Assembly: GCA_035353995.1 (NCBI GenBank)
Contig: DAOQAL010000001.1
Span: 374,104 to 420,368 of the forward strand
Direction of reading: 5' to 3'
DNA length: 46,265 bases
Source: Minisyncoccota bacterium
Lineage (GTDB): Bacteria; Patescibacteriota; Minisyncoccia; Phycocordibacterales; UBA9973
Positions 1-34,332 of this stretch are shown here, piece after piece; position 1 is the stretch's first letter, and the number at the start of each line of letters is the position of its first letter. The notes below the pieces were generated by a model. The model had not been told where the DNA came from, did not search any database, and worked only from the letters and a program-made list of their open reading frames with translations. Both the position numbers and the translations under genes were made by a program.

Positions 1-1
1 A

Positions 2-742
2 ATGGAAGAAAAAATCTTAACATTAAATCATAAAGAAAAAATAATTAATCTTTTTTCTGTCATAGATAATTACCTAGATTTATCTGATAAGGGTGGATCT
101 CAAATTGTAAAAGTTCCACATGATGTATTAAACAATCTCAATATAAGTTTTGGTGAAGCAAATAGTTTAATTCAATTTGTAAATAAAAACATAGGCTCAA
201 TAGATTACTGGGTAAATATTTTAAATGGAAATCTTGAATTTACTGATGTTCAGGCTCTTTTTATGTCTGAGGAAAATGTTTCTCCCGTAGATAATGTTTA
301 CAGAGATGATGAAAAATACTTTTTAATACTAGAAATAATAAATTGGAAATTATATAAGAAAAATCTTTTATCATTCTTGCAAATAAATAAATTAAAGTTA
401 TCATCTAATGATACAAAAAAGATAGACAATGGAAATATTATTTTAATGATAGATGAAGTAAAGAAAGAAATATTCAGAAAAGATAATAACAAGTTTATAC
501 ATAGATTTCGTAAAACTCATGGTAAAAATAAAAGATTTGAATATATAATTAATATATATAATAATCCTAAAATTGGAGGTAGTGATTTGGCTAAAGGTGG
601 AACATTACAAAATTTAAGTAAGGAAATAAATAACTTAAATAAAAAGATAAAAACAGAACTTAGACTTTCAGAAAAAATAATTGTGAATGATGATAATACT
701 GGGTATCAGATTAATGACAAATATAATATTGAATTTATGTAA
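2..742 (+). CDS. Hypothetical island protein, possibly with a C-terminal winged-helix-like segment; may be 5'-incomplete at the window edge
   Basis: 246-aa ORF in very AT-rich DNA upstream of the recombinases. The C-terminus (LQNLSKEINNLNKKIK...IIVNDDNTGYQIN) resembles OmpR-type wHTH ends by eye only. Confidence 0.45.
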   Translation: MEEKILTLNHKEKIINLFSVIDNYLDLSDKGGSQIVKVPHDVLNNLNISFGEANSLIQFVNKNIGSIDYWVNILNGNLEFTDVQALFMSEENVSPVDNVYRDDEKYFLILEIINWKLYKKNLLSFLQINKLKLSSNDTKKIDNGNIILMIDEVKKEIFRKDNNKFIHRFRKTHGKNKRFEYIINIYNNPKIGGSDLAKGGTLQNLSKEINNLNKKIKTELRLSEKIIVNDDNTGYQINDKYNIEFM

Positions 743-1635: not shown

Positions 1636-3183
1636 ATGAAGAAGAAAGTAATAATTGAAAAGCCTCACAATGACATAATCTATGTCCGTGTGAGTTCCAA
1701 AGAGCAAGTGCTTGGCTTCAGTCTTGATAGTCAGGAAAAAGTTTGTAGAGATTTCTCACAAAGAAGTGAACATGAAGTTTTAATAGTTTTCAGAGAAGAG
1801 GGAGAAAGTGCTAAGACTGCTGATAGAACAGAGCTTCAGAAAATGTTAAGGTTTTGTGAAGTAAACAAAAGACAGATTGATAGAGTTGTAGTTTATAAGG
1901 TGGATAGATTTTCTCGTGATACAGCAGATTATCTTGCATTGAGAGCTTGTCTTAATAAATTAGGAATCAAGTTAGTTTCTGCTACTGAATCATTTGATAA
2001 TACACCAGCAGGAAAATTAAATGAGACCATTCTTTCTGCCTTTGCTCAATTTGATAATGATGTAAGGTCGCAGAGAACTATTGAAGGAATGAAAGCTAGA
2101 TGTTTGAAAGGTTATTGCTCTGGTGTAGCTCCTTGGGGTTATATCAATACCAAAGATAATGTTGGAACAAAGATTATTGCTCCACATCCAGACAAAGCTC
2201 CTATAATAAAAATGATGTTTCAATCATATGCTAGTGGAAAATATAGTTTCAAGGAGATAGCAAAGATGGTAAATAAAACAGGATCTAAAAGTCGGTATGG
2301 TGTTAAATTCAACAAGCAACTTGTATCTAAAATAATAAAGAATCCTATCTATTATGGAAGAATTGCGGTTGCTAAGTTTAATGTAGATATACAAGGGAAC
2401 CATGAACCAATAATTACAAAAGAATTATTTGATGAAGCTAACTCTGGTAAGAGGTCTTCAAAGAGTAGTAAGTTGGCTCGCAACAGGGATAGCCCAGACT
2501 ATCCCTTGAGGGGTATAAAATGTAGTGGTTGTGGTAAAAGTATTTCTGGTGGAAAGTCTAGAAGTAAAACAGGAAAGTATTATCAATACTATGCCTGTTT
2601 TTGTGCTGAATGTGACAAGAGAGAAGCTATAAAGAAAGATGATTTAGAAAAAGACTTTACTAAATTTCTTCTTAAACTTACTCCAAACCATAAAGATCTT
2701 GATGTTTTAGCAGAAGGAATAAAGATAGCTCATAAGGGTGAATTAAGTTATGTTGCTGAAGAAGAGCAGAAATTTAATTTAAAGATTGAAGGATTAAAGG
2801 AAAAGAAAAATAAATTATTAGATTTGAGAATTGCTGGAGAGATTTCTACTGAAGAATTTGGAAAAGCAAATGAAGACTTGAAAAAGAAAATACAGGAACA
2901 GGAAGAAGAGATGAATAAATTATCTTCACCAGTTTTGAATGTAGACAATGTGGTTAATACAGGAATTGAATTTATAAAACAATTTCCTGAAATATGGAAA
3001 CTCATAGATCCTAAAGACCTCAGAGTTTTAAGAAATCTATTTTTCCCTGAAAATCTGTATTATCACTACCCAAGTATTAAAACCCCAAAAACTTGTTGTA
3101 TTTACAACATAGAATCTCAGTTTTGTGATACTAGGTATCGTAATGTGACCCTATCGGGAATCGAACCCGAATTACCGGCTTGA
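1636..3183 (+). CDS. Large serine recombinase / integrase
   Basis: IYVRVSS catalytic motif, VYKVDRFSR, recombinase domain, zinc ribbon (CSGC...CFCAEC) and coiled coil; 515 aa. Confidence 0.92.
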   Translation: MKKKVIIEKPHNDIIYVRVSSKEQVLGFSLDSQEKVCRDFSQRSEHEVLIVFREEGESAKTADRTELQKMLRFCEVNKRQIDRVVVYKVDRFSRDTADYLALRACLNKLGIKLVSATESFDNTPAGKLNETILSAFAQFDNDVRSQRTIEGMKARCLKGYCSGVAPWGYINTKDNVGTKIIAPHPDKAPIIKMMFQSYASGKYSFKEIAKMVNKTGSKSRYGVKFNKQLVSKIIKNPIYYGRIAVAKFNVDIQGNHEPIITKELFDEANSGKRSSKSSKLARNRDSPDYPLRGIKCSGCGKSISGGKSRSKTGKYYQYYACFCAECDKREAIKKDDLEKDFTKFLLKLTPNHKDLDVLAEGIKIAHKGELSYVAEEEQKFNLKIEGLKEKKNKLLDLRIAGEISTEEFGKANEDLKKKIQEQEEEMNKLSSPVLNVDNVVNTGIEFIKQFPEIWKLIDPKDLRVLRNLFFPENLYYHYPSIKTPKTCCIYNIESQFCDTRYRNVTLSGIEPELPA

Positions 3184-3217
3184 AAAGCCGATGTCCTAAC
3201 CGTTAGACGATAGGGCC
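3146..3217 (-). tRNA. tRNA-Glu(TTC)
   Basis: Minus strand GGCCCTATCGTCTAACGGTTAGGACATCGGCTTTTCAAGCCGGTAATTCGGGTTCGATTCCCGATAGGGTCA folds as a cloverleaf with anticodon TTC; CCA not encoded. Confidence 0.95.
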
Positions 3218-3270
3218 ATGAAAAACTTTTGGCATCTATCGTCCTGAAAAATGAATGGGCGATAGGGCCA
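3208..3270 (-). repeat. 52-bp tRNA-Glu leader unit, one copy bounded by the 11-bp repeat CGATAGGGCCA
   Basis: CGATAGGGCCA at 3208 and 3260; the same unit occurs twice at 21732-21846. Confidence 0.9.
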
Positions 3271-3342
3271 ATAAAAATACTAAATTATAATAACATTTTT
3301 TTATTAAATTGCAAAAGTATCAGACATGTAGAGGCAACCCCC

Positions 3343-3398
3343 CAGAGGCAAGACCTCTGTGGTACTGTGGTGCATCAACCCCAGAGGCAAGACCTATG
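3343..3398 (+). repeat. Two copies of the palindromic AGG-CAAGA-CCT repeat
   Basis: CAGAGGCAAGACCTCTG at 3343-3359 and CAGAGGCAAGACCTATG at 3382-3398; partial copies at about 3329 and 3403. Confidence 0.9.
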
Positions 3399-3456
3399 GG
3401 GTAGACCTTGTATCTTTTTTAAAGTTGTAAAAAATGTTAAATTATAAAAGTAAAAA

Positions 3457-3543
3457 GGAGGGTTGGCTGAGTGGTTGAAGGCGCCGGTTTCGAAAACCGG
3501 AATCCCTGAAAGGGGATCACAGGTTCAAATCCTGTACCCTCCG
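3457..3543 (+). tRNA. tRNA-Ser(CGA)
   Basis: GGAGGGT/ACCCTCC acceptor stem, CCGGT-TTCGAAA-ACCGG anticodon arm, long variable arm, GGTTCAAATCC T arm. Confidence 0.95.
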
Positions 3544-3598
3544 CAGTGAAATGAATTATTTTGTTTACACAAATTAATTTTTCACTTATAATATAAAT

Positions 3599-4784: not shown

Positions 4785-5993
4785 TTATTTTTTATTTCTT
4801 CTTAAGAATGCTGGAACAGCGCTCCAATCGTCCGTATCGTCTATTATTATTTCTTCAACAACTGGAATTGGTTTTTTTTCTATCTTTTTTGCATCCATAT
4901 TGCCATTTCCATTATTGTTATTATTTACACCTATAAAACCATTATGAATTTCTTTTTTTCCATTTTGGGAAACTTCTTCTTTTGGTGTAGTTTGATTTGT
5001 ATTCATTCCTAAACTAAAGAGACTTTTTCGTGGCATGTCAGCAGGGAATGATGTTGCTATAACTGTAACTTTTAATTCTCCTTTTTTTAATTTTTCATCA
5101 TGAATTGTTCCAAATATAACTTTCGCATCTTTATCAATTGATTCTGTAATTAATTTTGCTGCTTCTTCTATTTCATGAATAGTGATATCTTCACCTCCTG
5201 AAATTGCAAAAAGAACTCCTTTTGCTCCATTAACAGATACTTCAAGCAAAGGTGAATTTATTGCTTGCAATGCAGCTTTTTCTGCTCGTTTTTCGCCTGA
5301 TGCTGAACCTATACCCATAAGAGCAGAACCTGCGTCAGACATAATTGCTCTAATATCAGCAAAATCAACATTTATAATACCTGGAGTAGTAATAAGGTCA
5401 GAAATTCCTTCAACTGCTTGCCTTAATACTTCATCGCAAGTAGCAAAAGCGTCTTTAAAATTAGTGTTTTTATCAGCTAATTGCAATAATTTATCATTTG
5501 GTATAACGATTATTGCGTCTACTTCTTTTGCTAATTCTTCTATTCCTTTTTCGGCAATTTTCATTCTGTGATTTCCTTCGAAGAAGAATGGTTTTGTAAC
5601 TACAGCTACAGTCAATATGCCTTGTTCTTTTGCAGCTTTTGCAACAATAGGTGCGGCACCTGTTCCAGTACCTCCTCCCATACCACAAGCTATAAAAATC
5701 ATATCTGAACCTTTTACAACATCTTGAATTTCAGATTTAGTTTCTTCTGCTGCTTTTTTTCCAACTTCTGGATCCATACCAGCACCTAAACCTTTCGTAA
5801 GGTTTTTTCCAATATGAATTTTTTTATCAGCTAGTGAATGATGCAAGTCTTGAGTGTCGGTATTCATACAAATAAATTCGACTCCTTTAACTTTACCGTT
5901 GATCATGTGGTTGAGAGCATTTTTTCCTGAGCCTCCAACTCCAATTACTTTTATCCGAGCGAAACTTTCTATTATTGGGTTTACCTTTGGCAT
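4785..5993 (-). CDS. ftsZ: Cell division GTPase FtsZ
   Basis: GMGGGTGTGAAP signature, INVDFAD, C-terminal VPAFLRR core peptide. Confidence 0.98.
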   Translation of the reverse strand: MPKVNPIIESFARIKVIGVGGSGKNALNHMINGKVKGVEFICMNTDTQDLHHSLADKKIHIGKNLTKGLGAGMDPEVGKKAAEETKSEIQDVVKGSDMIFIACGMGGGTGTGAAPIVAKAAKEQGILTVAVVTKPFFFEGNHRMKIAEKGIEELAKEVDAIIVIPNDKLLQLADKNTNFKDAFATCDEVLRQAVEGISDLITTPGIINVDFADIRAIMSDAGSALMGIGSASGEKRAEKAALQAINSPLLEVSVNGAKGVLFAISGGEDITIHEIEEAAKLITESIDKDAKVIFGTIHDEKLKKGELKVTVIATSFPADMPRKSLFSLGMNTNQTTPKEEVSQNGKKEIHNGFIGVNNNNNGNGNMDAKKIEKKPIPVVEEIIIDDTDDWSAVPAFLRRNKK

Positions 5994-17016: not shown

Positions 17017-17114
17017 ATTTTGATTGTTTTTTATTTTTACAATGAAACTTTATACTTTTTCTACAAAAAACATATCATAAATATACCCAAAAGTCAACCT
17101 ACAATTTGCATATA

Positions 17115-17171
17115 TACATAGGCAAGACCTCTGTAGTAAAGACCAAACTACAGAGGCAAGACCTCTGTAGT
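17115..17171 (+). repeat. Two palindromic AGG-CAAGA-CCT repeats upstream of purM
   Basis: TACATAGGCAAGACCTCTGTA (17115-17135) and ACTACAGAGGCAAGACCTCTGTAGT (17147-17171, perfect 10-bp arms). Confidence 0.92.
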
Positions 17172-18460: not shown

Positions 18461-18476
18461 AATATATTTTTGGGTA

Positions 18477-19013
18477 CTACATAGGCAAGACCTCTGTAAA
18501 TACATTCTCTAATTTAGTACCATATCTTTCCCAATAAACCTTCAATCCTTCCAATAATGGATATGAATATTTTTCAGGGTTATTTTTTGTATCTTTTTTT
18601 AACCAATCTAGCTTTACCCATTTAACAAGTGATATCTCTTTTTCTTCTGGGGTAATTTTATTATCGCTAATTGCTAAATATAATGTTGCAAAAGCACTAT
18701 CTTGAGTATCTGAATGGTAAAAAGTAAATAATTCTTTTGGTTTAATATCTAACCCTACCTCTTCTTTTGTTTCTCTTTCAATACACATTGCAGTTGTTTC
18801 ATTATCAACTGTACCAGACACAGAAAAAGTATAAAGATTTGGATACCAACGCTTATTGGGTGAGCGTTTCATTATGGCTACTTCGTTCTTTGAATTAAAC
18901 AACATTAAATGGCAAGAACGATGAATGTGTTTTTCTCTATGAAAATCCTCACGAGGTCTTAACCCTATAACATTATTTTTTTCATCAACTTCTATAATAA
19001 GTTCTTTTTTCAT
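18477..19013 (-). CDS. NUDIX hydrolase (IDI type 1-like subfamily)
   Basis: VDEKNNVIG...HRSCHLMLFNS...KR...YP N-terminal pattern and RETKEEVGL Nudix box. Confidence 0.8.
   Translation of the reverse strand: MKKELIIEVDEKNNVIGLRPREDFHREKHIHRSCHLMLFNSKNEVAIMKRSPNKRWYPNLYTFSVSGTVDNETTAMCIERETKEEVGLDIKPKELFTFYHSDTQDSAFATLYLAISDNKITPEEKEISLVKWVKLDWLKKDTKNNPEKYSYPLLEGLKVYWERYGTKLENVFTEVLPM
18478..18498 (+). repeat. Palindromic repeat overlapping the NUDIX gene 3' end
   Basis: TACATAGGCAAGACCTCTGTA. Confidence 0.9.
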
Positions 19014-19014
19014 A

Positions 19015-19458
19015 TTATTTTATTTTTGATAAATTTCCGTTAATTATTTTAGGGAACATTCCATATAATTCCTCTTTATATTTTGAACTATCGTCTATTG
19101 GATTTAATACATAAATTGGTTTCTTTAGATAAAAAGCAATAGCCATCTCCATTAATACAGCACCTCCAATATATCCATCTTTACCATTTTTCTTATAATT
19201 TAAAACTAAAATGATATCTCCTTTTTCTACTTCCTTAAAATGCTTCTTTGTTAAATATGCCTTTCTCTTATAATCTTCAGGTCTTTCCATCCAAGTCTTA
19301 TATGTCTCAACTTTGAAATCACCAGTCTTTTTCATTTTATTTACTGTCAAAGGAACAATCACTTTAAAACCTAGATCTTTTAAATCATTATTTATTTTTA
19401 TTACATTTTCATAAAACGAAGCACTTGAACAAATAACTATATTTTTTTTCTTTTTCAT
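19015..19458 (-). CDS. Nucleoside 2-deoxyribosyltransferase-like protein
   Basis: GDIILVLN...GYIGGAVLMEMAIAFYLKKPIY resembles the NDT-fold G-x-x-x-E...KP segment. Confidence 0.6.
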   Translation of the reverse strand: MKKKKNIVICSSASFYENVIKINNDLKDLGFKVIVPLTVNKMKKTGDFKVETYKTWMERPEDYKRKAYLTKKHFKEVEKGDIILVLNYKKNGKDGYIGGAVLMEMAIAFYLKKPIYVLNPIDDSSKYKEELYGMFPKIINGNLSKIK

Positions 19459-19470
19459 ACTATTTATTAT

Positions 19471-19511
19471 TACAGAGGCAAGACCTCTGGGGTAAAAGAC
19501 CTCTGGGGTAA
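19471..19511 (+). repeat. Palindromic repeat with duplicated right arm
   Basis: TACAGAGGCAAGACCTCTGGGGTAAA followed by AGACCTCTGGGGTAAA. Confidence 0.9.
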
Positions 19512-20065: not shown

Positions 20066-20122
20066 ATTTTAATTATATAATAAAAAACCTATTTAAAATA
20101 GTTCTATATATTAATATTTAAC

Positions 20123-20173
20123 TACAGAGGCAAGACCTCTGTCGTGAGAGGCAAGACTATGTAGACCTATGTA
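20123..20173 (+). repeat. Palindromic repeat plus degenerate partial copies
   Basis: TACAGAGGCAAGACCTCTGT, then GAGAGGCAAGACTATGTAGACCTATGTA. Confidence 0.9.
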
Positions 20174-20280: not shown

Positions 20281-20679
20281 ATGAGCAATTCAACTATTTG
20301 GTATTCACAATTAATTAAACCAACTTGGGCACCACCACCTTGGTTGTTTGGACCCGTTTGGATAATACTTTACATAATAATTTTAATATCTTTTGGTGCA
20401 GTTTTTTTAAAATTTTTTGAAAGAAAAATACCTCGTAAAATAGTTTTGCCATTCGTTTTTAATCTGATATTCAATTTAATTTTTAGTCCAATTCAATTTG
20501 TCTTACAAAATAATATTTTGGGAGCAATAGATATAATCTTAGTTTTTATCACTTTAATTTGGGCAATGATTGCAATTTATCCAAGAATTAAATGGGTTAC
20601 TTATGTAAATATTCCTTATTTAATTTGGGTTTCTTTTGCTATGGTTTTGCAAATTATAATAACTTTTTTAAACATATAA
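20281..20679 (+). CDS. TspO/MBR family membrane protein, N-terminally short
   Basis: WYSQLIKPTWAPPPWLFGPVW and PYLIWVSFA signatures. Confidence 0.9.
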   Translation: MSNSTIWYSQLIKPTWAPPPWLFGPVWIILYIIILISFGAVFLKFFERKIPRKIVLPFVFNLIFNLIFSPIQFVLQNNILGAIDIILVFITLIWAMIAIYPRIKWVTYVNIPYLIWVSFAMVLQIIITFLNI

Positions 20680-20690
20680 TTTTATGAAAC

Positions 20691-20724
20691 TACATAGGCA
20701 AGACCTATGTATAAGACCTCTGTA
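20691..20724 (+). repeat. Palindromic repeat with duplicated right arm
   Basis: TACATAGGCAAGACCTATGTA (perfect palindrome variant) followed by AGACCTCTGTA. Confidence 0.9.
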
Positions 20725-21426: not shown

Positions 21427-21462
21427 TATTTAATTATATCAAATATAATAAAATTTCTTTAG

Positions 21463-21492
21463 ATAGGCAAGACCTCTGTAGAGACCTATGTA
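21463..21492 (+). repeat. Palindromic repeat with duplicated right arm
   Basis: ATAGGCAAGACCTCTGTAG followed by AGACCTATGTA. Confidence 0.88.
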
Positions 21493-21632
21493 AACAGAAA
21501 AATATGGAATGCTATGCATGCAAAGATTATGTGAGCCACAATAATTTGCTCGCCGTCGCTCGCAAATTTTCCAGCCCCGGACTCAGCTGTTTTTCTTACT
21601 AGAAAAACATGCTTCCGTCTTCACGGCGAAAG

Positions 21633-21662
21633 AAAAAAACTCCAAGCAGTTGGAGTTTTTTT
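21633..21662 (-). terminator. Terminator downstream of tRNA-Glu(CTC)
   Basis: AAAAAAACTCCAA-loop-TTGGAGTTTTTTT. Confidence 0.8.
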
Positions 21663-21669
21663 ATCGCCG

Positions 21670-21741
21670 TGACCCCACAGAGAATCGGACTCTGATTTTA
21701 TCCTTGAGAAGGATACGTCCTAGCCGTTAGACGATAGGGCC
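21670..21741 (-). tRNA. tRNA-Glu(CTC)
   Basis: Minus strand GGCCCTATCGTCTAACGGCTAGGACGTATCCTTCTCAAGGATAAAATCAGAGTCCGATTCTCTGTGGGGTCA; anticodon CTC; T loop TCCGATT. Confidence 0.92.
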
Positions 21742-21846
21742 ATAAAAAACTTTTAGCATCTATCGTCCTGAAAAATGAATGGGCGATAGGGCCATGAAAA
21801 ACTTTTGGCATCTATCGTCCTTAAAAATGAATGGGCGATAGGGCCA
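21732..21846 (-). repeat. Two tandem 52-bp tRNA-Glu leader units
   Basis: CGATAGGGCCA at 21732, 21784 and 21836; the units differ from the 3208 copy by 1-2 substitutions each. Confidence 0.92.
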
Positions 21847-21958
21847 ATATTTATTTTCCGATATAAAAAATATACCATTTTTTGTTATAAAATCAAAAAA
21901 AGCATGTGTGATAATAATCATCAACACATGCTTCATACTCCCAATTACCAACTACCAA

Positions 21959-22552
21959 CTAATGCCTTTCGTAAACTCCTACGGCTTTTGTTTTTTTCAG
22001 ATCTTCTTGGACTGAAATTGTTTTTCCTTCTACGCTTGTAGTAGCGTGCGGAACACTCCATAGACGTTCTTTTGGAATCAACTTGCCAGTAACTCGGCAT
22101 ATTCCGTAGGTTTTATTACTGATTCGGACTAACGCATTTTCCAGATGTTTTATAAACTTTTCCTGTCTGGCCGCGAATTTGCTGTTTTCTTCCTTGGAAA
22201 AGACCTGATAGCCTTCTTCCAAGACCTTGAAGGTGGGAGAAGTGTCATATGTCCCATTATTACCATCCGGCTCTGTTGATGCTTCCTTGAAAAGACTTAA
22301 ATCATTTCGTGCCTTATTAAGTTTAGCATTGATGATTACACGAAACTCTTCAAGCTCCTCGTCAGTGTATCTAGTCTTCTCTTGGGCAACAGGTGTGACA
22401 CCGATTAATGATTTTACTCCAACAATATGGTGGCCATTGGTTGGAGTTTTGGAAATAATTCTTTTATTAGCTTTGACTTCGACTCCTCCTTGAGGAACCT
22501 TTCCAGTAGCTAAGGCATGAGCCTTTCCGTTTACGGTAATTTTTTTTGCCAT
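21959..22552 (-). CDS. TraR/DksA family transcription factor
   Basis: RYTDEELEEF...DTSPTFKVLEEG...LENALVRISNKTYGICRVTGKLIPKERL..VPHAT. Confidence 0.88.
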   Translation of the reverse strand: MAKKITVNGKAHALATGKVPQGGVEVKANKRIISKTPTNGHHIVGVKSLIGVTPVAQEKTRYTDEELEEFRVIINAKLNKARNDLSLFKEASTEPDGNNGTYDTSPTFKVLEEGYQVFSKEENSKFAARQEKFIKHLENALVRISNKTYGICRVTGKLIPKERLWSVPHATTSVEGKTISVQEDLKKTKAVGVYERH

Positions 22553-34243: not shown

Positions 34244-34263
34244 CAAAGAAATATCTAGAATAC

Positions 34264-34284
34264 TACAGAGGTCTTGCCTCTGTA
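34264..34284 (-). repeat. Palindromic repeat in reverse orientation just downstream of tRNA-Ile
   Basis: TACAGAGGTCTTGCCTCTGTA, the reverse complement of TACAGAGGCAAGACCTCTGTA. Confidence 0.9.
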
Positions 34285-34332
34285 ATTTAAAGTCATTTGT
34301 ATGATAGTGATTTTTTGTGGTATATTTAATAT

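Follow-up and report, generated by a model that had tools for sequence, protein, structure and literature searches.

Partial self-copies of tRNA-Glu in the leaders of tRNA-Glu genes of a patescibacterial genome

Why is a tRNA gene preceded by tandem copies of a short unit that holds both the tRNA's own 5' end and a strand complementary to it? The question is raised by a 46,265-nt stretch of DNA (in the following, the window) from a cellular genome of the Patescibacteria. A sequence-only reading of the window had offered two models for the units, namely (a) an RNA switch in the pre-tRNA leader and (b) an att-like site or 41-bp mini-element that integrates at the tRNA-Glu 5' end. Given their sequence, we find that the 52-nt units are best read as a tRNA-derived leader cassette, i.e., a cut-down copy of tRNA-Glu. 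We give even chances to the further proposal that this cassette spreads through duplication, slippage and gene conversion, with an effect in cis on how the pre-tRNA folds or is processed by RNase P.

The 52-nt units and their transcription context

The window has a G+C content of about 30% and encodes, among others, FtsZ, thioredoxin reductase, RmuC and an RNase T-like exonuclease, while GatB and Obg are encoded by neighbouring genes on the JGI contig. The organism's source habitat is activated sludge. Of the loci retrieved, those closest in synteny come from Nomurabacteria/Paceibacteria MAGs and include an ortholog of the tRNA-Glu(TTC) locus (L019; FtsZ 78% and TrxB 71% identity) and one of the tRNA-Glu(CTC) locus (L062; RmuC 87% identical). 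Four tRNA genes are found in the window (ARAGORN, Rfam tRNA model), two of which are tRNA-Glu genes, both on the - strand. Feature coordinates are collected in Table 1.

Table 1. Features of the two tRNA-Glu loci and intergenic repeats of the window; coordinates of units and tRNA-Glu genes are given as read on the - strand.
Feature	Position	Strand	Description	Basis
Promoter-like site, tRNA-Glu(CTC) unit	21869..21896	-	TTGATT, 16 nt, TG-TATATT	
Unit A, promoter-distal 52-nt cassette	21795..21846	-		repeat search, folding
Unit A decoy	21846..21833	-	tRNA -1..+13	
Unit A anti-strand	21820..21812	-	GGACGAUAG, then GCCA and A/U linker	
Unit B, tRNA-proximal 52-nt cassette	21743..21794	-		repeat search, folding
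Unit B anti-strand	21768..21760	-		
tRNA-Glu(CTC)	21669..21741	-	complete cloverleaf, no encoded CCA	ARAGORN, Rfam tRNA
Hairpin, probable terminator	21633..21656	-	ACTCCAA-CTGC-TTGGAGT, then T7	read from sequence
Promoter-like site, tRNA-Glu(TTC) unit	3287..3314	-	TTGCAA, 16 nt, TG-TATTAT	
Single cassette before tRNA-Glu(TTC)	3219..3270	-		repeat search, folding
TTC cassette, decoy	3270..3257	-		
TTC cassette, loop	3256..3245	-		
TTC cassette, anti-strand	3244..3236	-		
TTC cassette, GCCA	3233..3230	-		
TTC cassette, linker	3229..3219	-		
tRNA-Glu(TTC)	3145..3217	-		ARAGORN, Rfam tRNA
ACAGAGGCAAGACCTCTGT motif	3328-3402, 17102-17171, 18466-18496, 19458-19507, 20110-20145, 20674-20724, 21443-21492, 34262-34290		intergenic	

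Tandem Repeats Finder reports a period of 52 for 21732-21846 (2.2 copies, 95% matches), and a search of the window with the 52-mer yields exactly three copies (0 expected by chance, 100 shuffles), which show no mismatch (3270..3219), two (21794..21743) and one (21846..21795). tRNA-Glu(CTC) is thus preceded by a tandem of two units and tRNA-Glu(TTC), 18.5 kb away, by a single one, as the sequence-only reading had described. It had also stated that the unit repeats position -1 of the tRNA plus nt 1-10 and contains the exact reverse complement of tRNA nt 5-12. Both statements are borne out: the unit starts with TGGCCCTATCG, i.e., tRNA -1..+10, with the identity reaching even +12 apart from U11>C (12/13 identical positions over -1..+12 in the window units), and the inner complement is GACGATAG. 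By simple arithmetic, the chance of such an 8-mer complement at about 34 possible positions is about 5e-4. The word GGCCCTATCG is found in only five places of the window, namely in the three units and at the two tRNA-Glu 5' ends.

In the following, we refer to the copy of tRNA -1..+13 (with U11>C and U13>C) as the decoy and to the complementary strand as the anti-strand; by sequence complementarity, the target of the latter is nt 1-13 of tRNA-Glu(CTC). After the loop, AGGACGAUAG..GCC-A pairs with the decoy copy and better still with the real tRNA 5' end. Each unit is predicted to fold into the hairpin that had been suggested for the upstream copy and the CGATAG..GCCAA strand, i.e., an interrupted helix of 13 bp with -11.4 to -13.7 kcal/mol (z = -2.5 to -3.7), and the opposite-strand version is at least equally stable. 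Unit B differs from unit A in the outer stem (GCC>GCU, which turns G-C into G.U) and in one linker position. The T arm and the anticodon arm are absent from the window units, in which ARAGORN and the Rfam tRNA model predict no tRNA, and Rfam at gathering as well as permissive thresholds matched only tRNAs and no family for any leader cassette.

At both loci, the outermost unit closely follows a sigma-70-like promoter that has an extended -10 box; the promoter-like site ends about 23 nt upstream of unit A at the CTC locus and about 17 nt upstream of the unit at the TTC locus. For the remaining tRNAs of the window, just 5-9 nt separate the -10 box from the mature 5' end, i.e., the units occupy the normal tRNA start position. 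In relatives, the extended -10 box is located 8-29 nt before the decoy, and in L062 a promoter homologous to that of the CTC locus precedes its single unit. From its sequence, the hairpin downstream of tRNA-Glu(CTC) is a probable intrinsic terminator that would close a transcription unit of promoter, units and tRNA; Rfam gives a weak terminator-type match at 21626-21662, while a simple terminator scan did not list the hairpin. Reading the leader itself as a terminator or attenuator was rejected: neither leader has a terminator-like site on the - strand, the U5 run of the unit begins 5 nt past the interrupted stem, and the type-2 hairpins of relatives (see below) have no U run. Metatranscriptome runs that share words with the loci yielded only tRNA-Glu of other organisms or DNA-like contigs through the promoter, and the leader is not covered by them.

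A mis-assembly had been named as a concern for the array. The same sequence is present in an independently assembled JGI contig (L001) as well as in a MAG contig from NCBI (L146), and in two independent runs both junctions, tRNA>unit B and unit B>unit A, are crossed by Logan contigs at single-copy depth, which settles this point. Metagenome contigs furthermore reveal the copy-number variation that had been suggested for inspection. A landfill contig contains part of one unit, a full unit with variants of its own and more than 190 nt of TTC-type upstream sequence, which means two or more units at the TTC locus of this strain. One unit is found in a freshwater strain, and in a minor relative from the source sample no unit intervenes between tRNA and promoter region. 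Contig depth over the unit is unusable for a genome-wide copy count, since the overlapping contigs of several strains add up. The five variants observed between copies or strains fall into the loop (two sites), into the linker or change G-C to G.U.

Some further observations concern the surroundings of the two genes. The first 25 nt of tRNA-Glu(TTC) and tRNA-Glu(CTC) are equal but for one base, while their bodies differ. The 3' strand CGAUAGGGUC of tRNA-Glu(TTC) can pair with nt 1-10, which adds three pairs to the acceptor stem at the cost of the D and T stems, and the thermodynamic fold of this tRNA alone shows the extended acceptor stem. The orthologous tRNA of L019 has no such extended stem, so the 3' part of tRNA-Glu(TTC) may derive from the adjacent recombinase element (see below). 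tRNA-Ser(CGA) and tRNA-Glu(TTC) form a conserved divergent pair about 200-700 nt apart in the window (3145-3544), L018 and L019, and both in the window and in L019 this pair has trxB-ftsZ-ftsA as its neighbour. A DksA/TraR-type zinc-finger protein is encoded immediately upstream of the tRNA-Glu(CTC) promoter (21959-22552, - strand). Its nearest homologues are MAG proteins of 68-79% identity, with the few source names all from Bacteroidota, and the gene is not at the orthologous locus L062; it looks like a recent horizontal acquisition. Finally, the palindromic motif ACAGAGGCAAGACCTCTGT and its complement are found at ten or more places between genes, in part accompanied by short tandem AAGACCTCTG repeats, and constitute a REP-like or terminator-like repeat of this genome.

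Leader self-copies in related genomes

A survey of tRNA-Glu leaders in relatives had been proposed for presence and copy number of the unit. We scanned 185,579 species genomes with the pattern GGCCCTATCG, 30-60 nt, GGCCCTATCGTC. This resulted in 23 loci, 19 of which are tRNA-Glu genes (18 from Patescibacteria, one from Saganbacteria). In all 19, the first part of the leader, a few nt past the promoter, copies the tRNA 5' end; the scan demanded an exact 10-nt copy of that end, and the conservation of the decoy therefore proves nothing by itself. We distinguish three cassette types, each of which is a partial self-copy of the tRNA, with nothing else in common in sequence.

Type 1 (L003, L008, L010, L011, L012/L025, L023) consists of nt 1-16, a D-like hairpin with an insertion ending in AGCGGACA, and a copy of the anticodon arm. 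The stem of this arm tracks the local tRNA's own stem in four versions (P<=0.006), while the loop differs. Type 2 (L007, L013, L014, L017-L020, L022) comprises nt 1-12 (or 1-10), a G+C-rich hairpin and then nt 13-21 (L017, P=0.014). Its hairpin is a perfect palindrome in four cases, for which no occurrence outside leaders was found among 145 loci, and type-2 leaders do not form a pseudo-acceptor stem. L020 carries two tandem 64-nt units. Type 3 covers the window, L062, L009, L021 and L024. Its similarity to the tRNA past nt 13 is not significant (P=0.18-0.34), and the homology of its second half to the 3' strand of the D-stem is thus an interpretation only; the idea that its loop is a T-loop remnant (GUUCGAU in L024, GUUCAUA in L062) was dropped for want of statistical support. 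The leader of L016 is a decayed whole tRNA (P=0.016). In relatives, the repeated tRNA segment ranges from 10 to 26 nt and reaches into the anticodon arm.

To judge the frequency of such leaders, an unbiased sample was picked by the D-arm alone, comprising 118 tRNA-Glu genes and 146 other tRNAs. Here, a leader copy is present at only one or two of the 118 tRNA-Glu genes, clear only in L062 and weaker in L114, while none of 155 other tRNAs is preceded by an exact leader copy. Analogous leaders are present in about 20 genomes, yet their distribution is sporadic. Given this and the orthologous loci L121 and L067, which have no copy, the element is not essential. Three scans of viral contigs gave nothing relevant, with a single match (L148) that is not a tRNA.

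Leaders also differ strongly between orthologous loci. Among the orthologs of the CTC locus (linked to RmuC or ORF 20281), type 3 is found in the window and L062, type 1 in L008 and L010, a decayed tRNA in L016, another leader in L015 and no copy in L121 and L067. L062 has one unit compared to two in the window. The TTC-locus ortholog L019 has a type-2 leader. The TTC unit of the window is nearly identical to the CTC units and was therefore probably copied from the CTC locus.

Two observations extend the range of leaders. About 75 nt upstream of the tRNA-Glu gene at 1774, L114 shows the weaker GGCCCTATA...TATAGG hairpin, GGCCCTATATGC-AAA-GCATATAGGTTC, the 5' arm of which copies nt 1-8 of the tRNA; we regard it as a more diverged instance of leader self-copying. 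Furthermore, L016 (about 2585-2615), L021 (about 5134-5163) and L121 (about 3460-3488) share a leader piece CGCCCGA(A/C)C, short hairpin, (T)TA(A/T)G, which immediately precedes the decoy in L016 and L021 and the tRNA itself in L121. By its sequence and position, this piece may be a fourth kind of tRNA-Glu leader element.

Conservation, and predicted folding and strand exchange

Within type 3, not only the decoy but also a nine-base strand GGACGATAG is invariant in all five lineages, as is one further base (A) two positions before it, while the loops (12-18 nt) and linkers cannot be aligned and the tRNA bodies have diverged, too. Gene conversion cannot explain this conservation of the anti-strand, since the tRNA holds no donor for it. 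The C11.A mismatch between decoy (U11>C) and anti-strand is kept in 4/5 lineages. One compensatory change is observed, i.e., C13-G to A13-U in L021. Concerning the conservation and covariation that had been asked of relatives, the anti-strand thus is conserved but the covariation is not significant: 7 of the 13 type-3 pairs are invariant and one is compensatory, which does not exceed shuffles, because the helix is invariant; type 1 shows no significant covariation either. Over 21 leaders, 128 decoy positions are paired within the leader compared to 93+-10 in shuffled leaders.

The predicted energies are -12.9 kcal/mol for the unit's own hairpin and -16.7 kcal/mol for the anti-strand paired with the real tRNA 5' strand, with the latter pairing being better because U11>C of the decoy yields a C.A mismatch. 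Two mutually exclusive structures result from prediction, i.e., the hairpin of decoy and anti-strand on the one hand, and the anti-strand paired with tRNA nt 1-13 plus the decoy paired with the tRNA 3' strand on the other. For the growing transcript of the window, L021 and L024, the minimum-energy path proceeds from the unit's own hairpin via pairing of the anti-strand with tRNA nt 1-13 to the unit's hairpin plus cloverleaf. For L062 and L009, the same capture is predicted, while the end state is a swap, with the decoy paired to the 3' acceptor strand of the tRNA. When comparing pre-tRNA folding with and without the unit, as had been suggested, the native acceptor stem of the equilibrium ensemble is predicted to drop from about 0.9-1.0 without leader to at most 0.14 with leader in 19/21 cases, where nearest-neighbour folding disregards tRNA tertiary structure, modification and kinetics, and where such a swap is nearly always expected from two identical 5' strands.

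Based on these observations, the cassette would be composed of the 5' strands of acceptor and D-stem (nt -1..13, with U11>C and U13>C) and a scrambled loop, followed by the 3' strand of the D-stem (AGGAC) fused to GAUAG..GCC-A, which would close a pseudo-acceptor stem, and an A/U linker. Placed between promoter and real tRNA, it would be co-transcribed with the latter. It may have originated from a tandem self-duplication of the 5' part of the tRNA gene, with slippage or unequal exchange between the direct repeats changing its copy number. Ectopic conversion between the two tRNA-Glu loci could find its homology arms in the 12-nt decoy and in nt 1-25 of the tRNA.

In the transcript, the unit RNA would first fold on itself. 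Once the real tRNA 5' strand emerges, the anti-strand would prefer it owing to the conserved C11.A mismatch of the decoy and hold nt 1-13 transiently by strand exchange, which could run by branch migration because the two 5' strands are identical. With the synthesis of the tRNA arms and the 3' strand, nt 1-13 would be returned to the tRNA. An exchange that fails to revert would leave the decoy paired with the tRNA 3' acceptor strand, and such a precursor could not mature at +1. In this way, the cassette would control the timing of, or set a limit to, the supply of correctly folded pre-tRNA-Glu that RNase P can cleave. The cassette itself would then be discarded by RNase P cleavage at +1. Only tentatively do we go one step further and consider the leader to encode a natural strand-exchange device, with interchangeable cassettes across Patescibacteria and copy number as a tuning knob.

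Model (a) of the sequence-only reading, the RNA switch, is therefore retained in part. It agrees with the predicted transcribed position, the alternative pairings, the invariant anti-strand and the occurrence in about 20 genomes, i.e., with support from sequence and folding. Covariation does not reach significance, however, and no aptamer-like conserved core is found, as the cassette interior is not conserved and has no Rfam match.

A possible, though on balance unlikely, account of the same data is that the units are functionless debris, i.e., a decaying tandem pseudo-copy of tRNA-Glu that is homogenised by conversion, amplified or lost by slippage and removed by RNase P. The sporadic distribution with loss at orthologous loci, the fast turnover of cassette types, the variable copy number and the non-significant covariation all fit this account, L016 is plainly a decayed tRNA, and the spacer-less perfect palindromes of type 2 resemble template-switch mutations. 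What such debris leaves unexplained is the anti-strand, which is invariant in five lineages without a conversion donor in the tRNA while loops, linkers and tRNA bodies diverged, as well as the retention of the derived C11.A mismatch in 4/5 lineages. Furthermore, variants spare base pairs, and the cassette persists although its flanking direct repeats should ease deletion.

Remaining alternatives and known systems

In all type-3 units, position -1 is a U and the stem is followed by a terminal ...CA, resembling the ...GGGUCA of the tRNA, and in several genomes the hairpin begins within a few nt of the expected transcription start. Both would suit a separate small RNA, i.e., a stable tRNA-like minihelix, with a discriminator-like A after its pseudo-acceptor stem, that is released by RNase P and 3' trimming and serves, e.g., as a decoy for a tRNA-Glu-binding enzyme or toxin. 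We consider this very unlikely. In E. coli, GluRS identity is set by U11, U13 and the anticodon, and exactly the GluRS identity positions are altered or lost in the unit. Moreover, type-2 leaders lack the pseudo-acceptor stem, and the stoichiometry to the tRNA would be merely 1:1 or 2:1.

Model (b) takes the unit for a mobile mini-element or the att site of a recombinase, inserted at the 5' end of tRNA-Glu with duplication of 11 bp. At first sight, much agrees with it: the 52-bp unit has an imperfect inverted symmetry and an 11-nt flanking direct repeat, it is present at two loci 18.5 kb apart, and the gene of a large serine recombinase adjoins tRNA-Glu(TTC). The symmetry is indeed present and flanked by an 11-13-nt direct repeat, with arms that are the tRNA 5' end and its complement. 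However, the recombinase gene (ORF 1636..3183, + strand), which had been placed beside the TTC unit, lies on the 3' side of the tRNA and is convergent with it, running 39 nt into the antisense of the tRNA's 3' half. (A truncated resolvase-domain ORF, 1107-1472, is located just upstream of the recombinase gene.) Homologous recombinases are found at only 2 of about 140 other loci, i.e., L012 (5644-6846) and L054 (3427-4284), again 300-540 nt downstream of tRNA-Glu. This similar arrangement might be counted in favour of model (b), but L054 has the recombinase without a leader unit, L025 has the same leader as L012 without a recombinase, and none is encoded within the DNA examined at the CTC locus, L062 and 17 other unit-bearing loci.

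Neither does the duplication agree. Serine recombinases exchange strands at a 2-bp core and make no 11-bp duplication. A target-site duplication of fixed length is rejected by tRNA segments of 10, 12 and 16+ nt, with type 1 continuing with the local anticodon arm. All three copies in the window stand directly before tRNA-Glu and none elsewhere, which rejects a dispersed repeat or miniature transposable element, and neither a second tRNA-derived att-like repeat nor an end of the recombinase element is found within 10 kb beyond the recombinase. We thus give hardly any credence to model (b). tRNA-Glu probably serves as an integration site at its 3' side, while the leader units are a matter separate from recombinase integration.

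Scarcely credible, too, is a DNA operator, i.e., an inverted repeat that binds a dimeric regulator of tRNA-Glu transcription just past the start site: the position at +1 to +50 of the transcription unit, the perfect palindromes of type 2 and a hairpin at least as stable on the opposite strand are compatible with it, but the three cassette types share only the tRNA copy in sequence, no candidate regulator gene is conserved beside the loci, and the half-site spacing varies within type 3 (loop 12-18 nt), a sequence feature which argues for an RNA hairpin rather than a DNA site of a dimeric protein.

We thus return to the tRNA-derived leader cassette and relate it to known systems. In the usual view, bacterial tRNA leaders need only a single-stranded stretch for RNase P. 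Partial tRNA copies are known as attL/attR at the ends of integrated islands or prophages, where they are usually 3' fragments located kilobases away. The likeness lies in the direct repeat of a tRNA part by an intact gene and in the recombinase near tRNA-Glu(TTC); the cassette copies, in contrast, are 5' fragments 41-70 nt upstream, within the transcription unit, in tandem and unlinked to a recombinase. The E. coli rRNA leader acts as a transient folding guide for 16S rRNA, i.e., during transcription, a strand of the leader forms temporary pairs with the 5' part of the mature RNA and is removed afterwards, as predicted for the cassette; it concerns another RNA, though, and has no known decoy copy. 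We know of nothing comparable that has been described for a tRNA. E. coli tRNA-Glu, in turn, has an inactive alternative conformer and a misfolding tendency in the acceptor/D region. A folding device at tRNA-Glu would then make sense, although the conformer is intrinsic to the mature tRNA and involves no leader. The literature yielded no natural leader made from a tRNA copy.

Structured 5' leaders of natural pre-tRNAs are known as RNase P anti-determinants, e.g., the stem-loop before E. coli tRNA-Val (valV) (PMC9433436). As is proposed for the cassette, a cis-acting leader hairpin or pairing alters RNase P maturation there and is discarded after cleavage. Those leaders are no tRNA copies and pair near the cleavage site or with the 3' RCCA, whereas the cassette has a decoy of nt 1-13 plus an anti-tRNA strand and leaves 13 nt by the cleavage site single-stranded. 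In a synthetic RNase P riboswitch, a theophylline-controlled leader governs pre-tRNA processing (PMC7897497). Two mutually exclusive leader folds decide on processing, which is also predicted for the cassette, but the riboswitch is engineered and uses a ligand aptamer, while the cassette has no aptamer-like conserved pocket.

If true, a leader made of the tRNA's own 5' strand and its complement would be the first natural tRNA precursor that carries both its own competitor and its holder. With it, the production of a misfolding-prone tRNA in organisms that have minimal genomes and few RNA chaperones or modification enzymes could be put to the test. For annotators, the lesson is that a direct repeat at a tRNA gene need not be the scar of an integration. 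Even if functionless, the units would document a recurrent route by which tRNA genes partly duplicate, amplify and homogenise.
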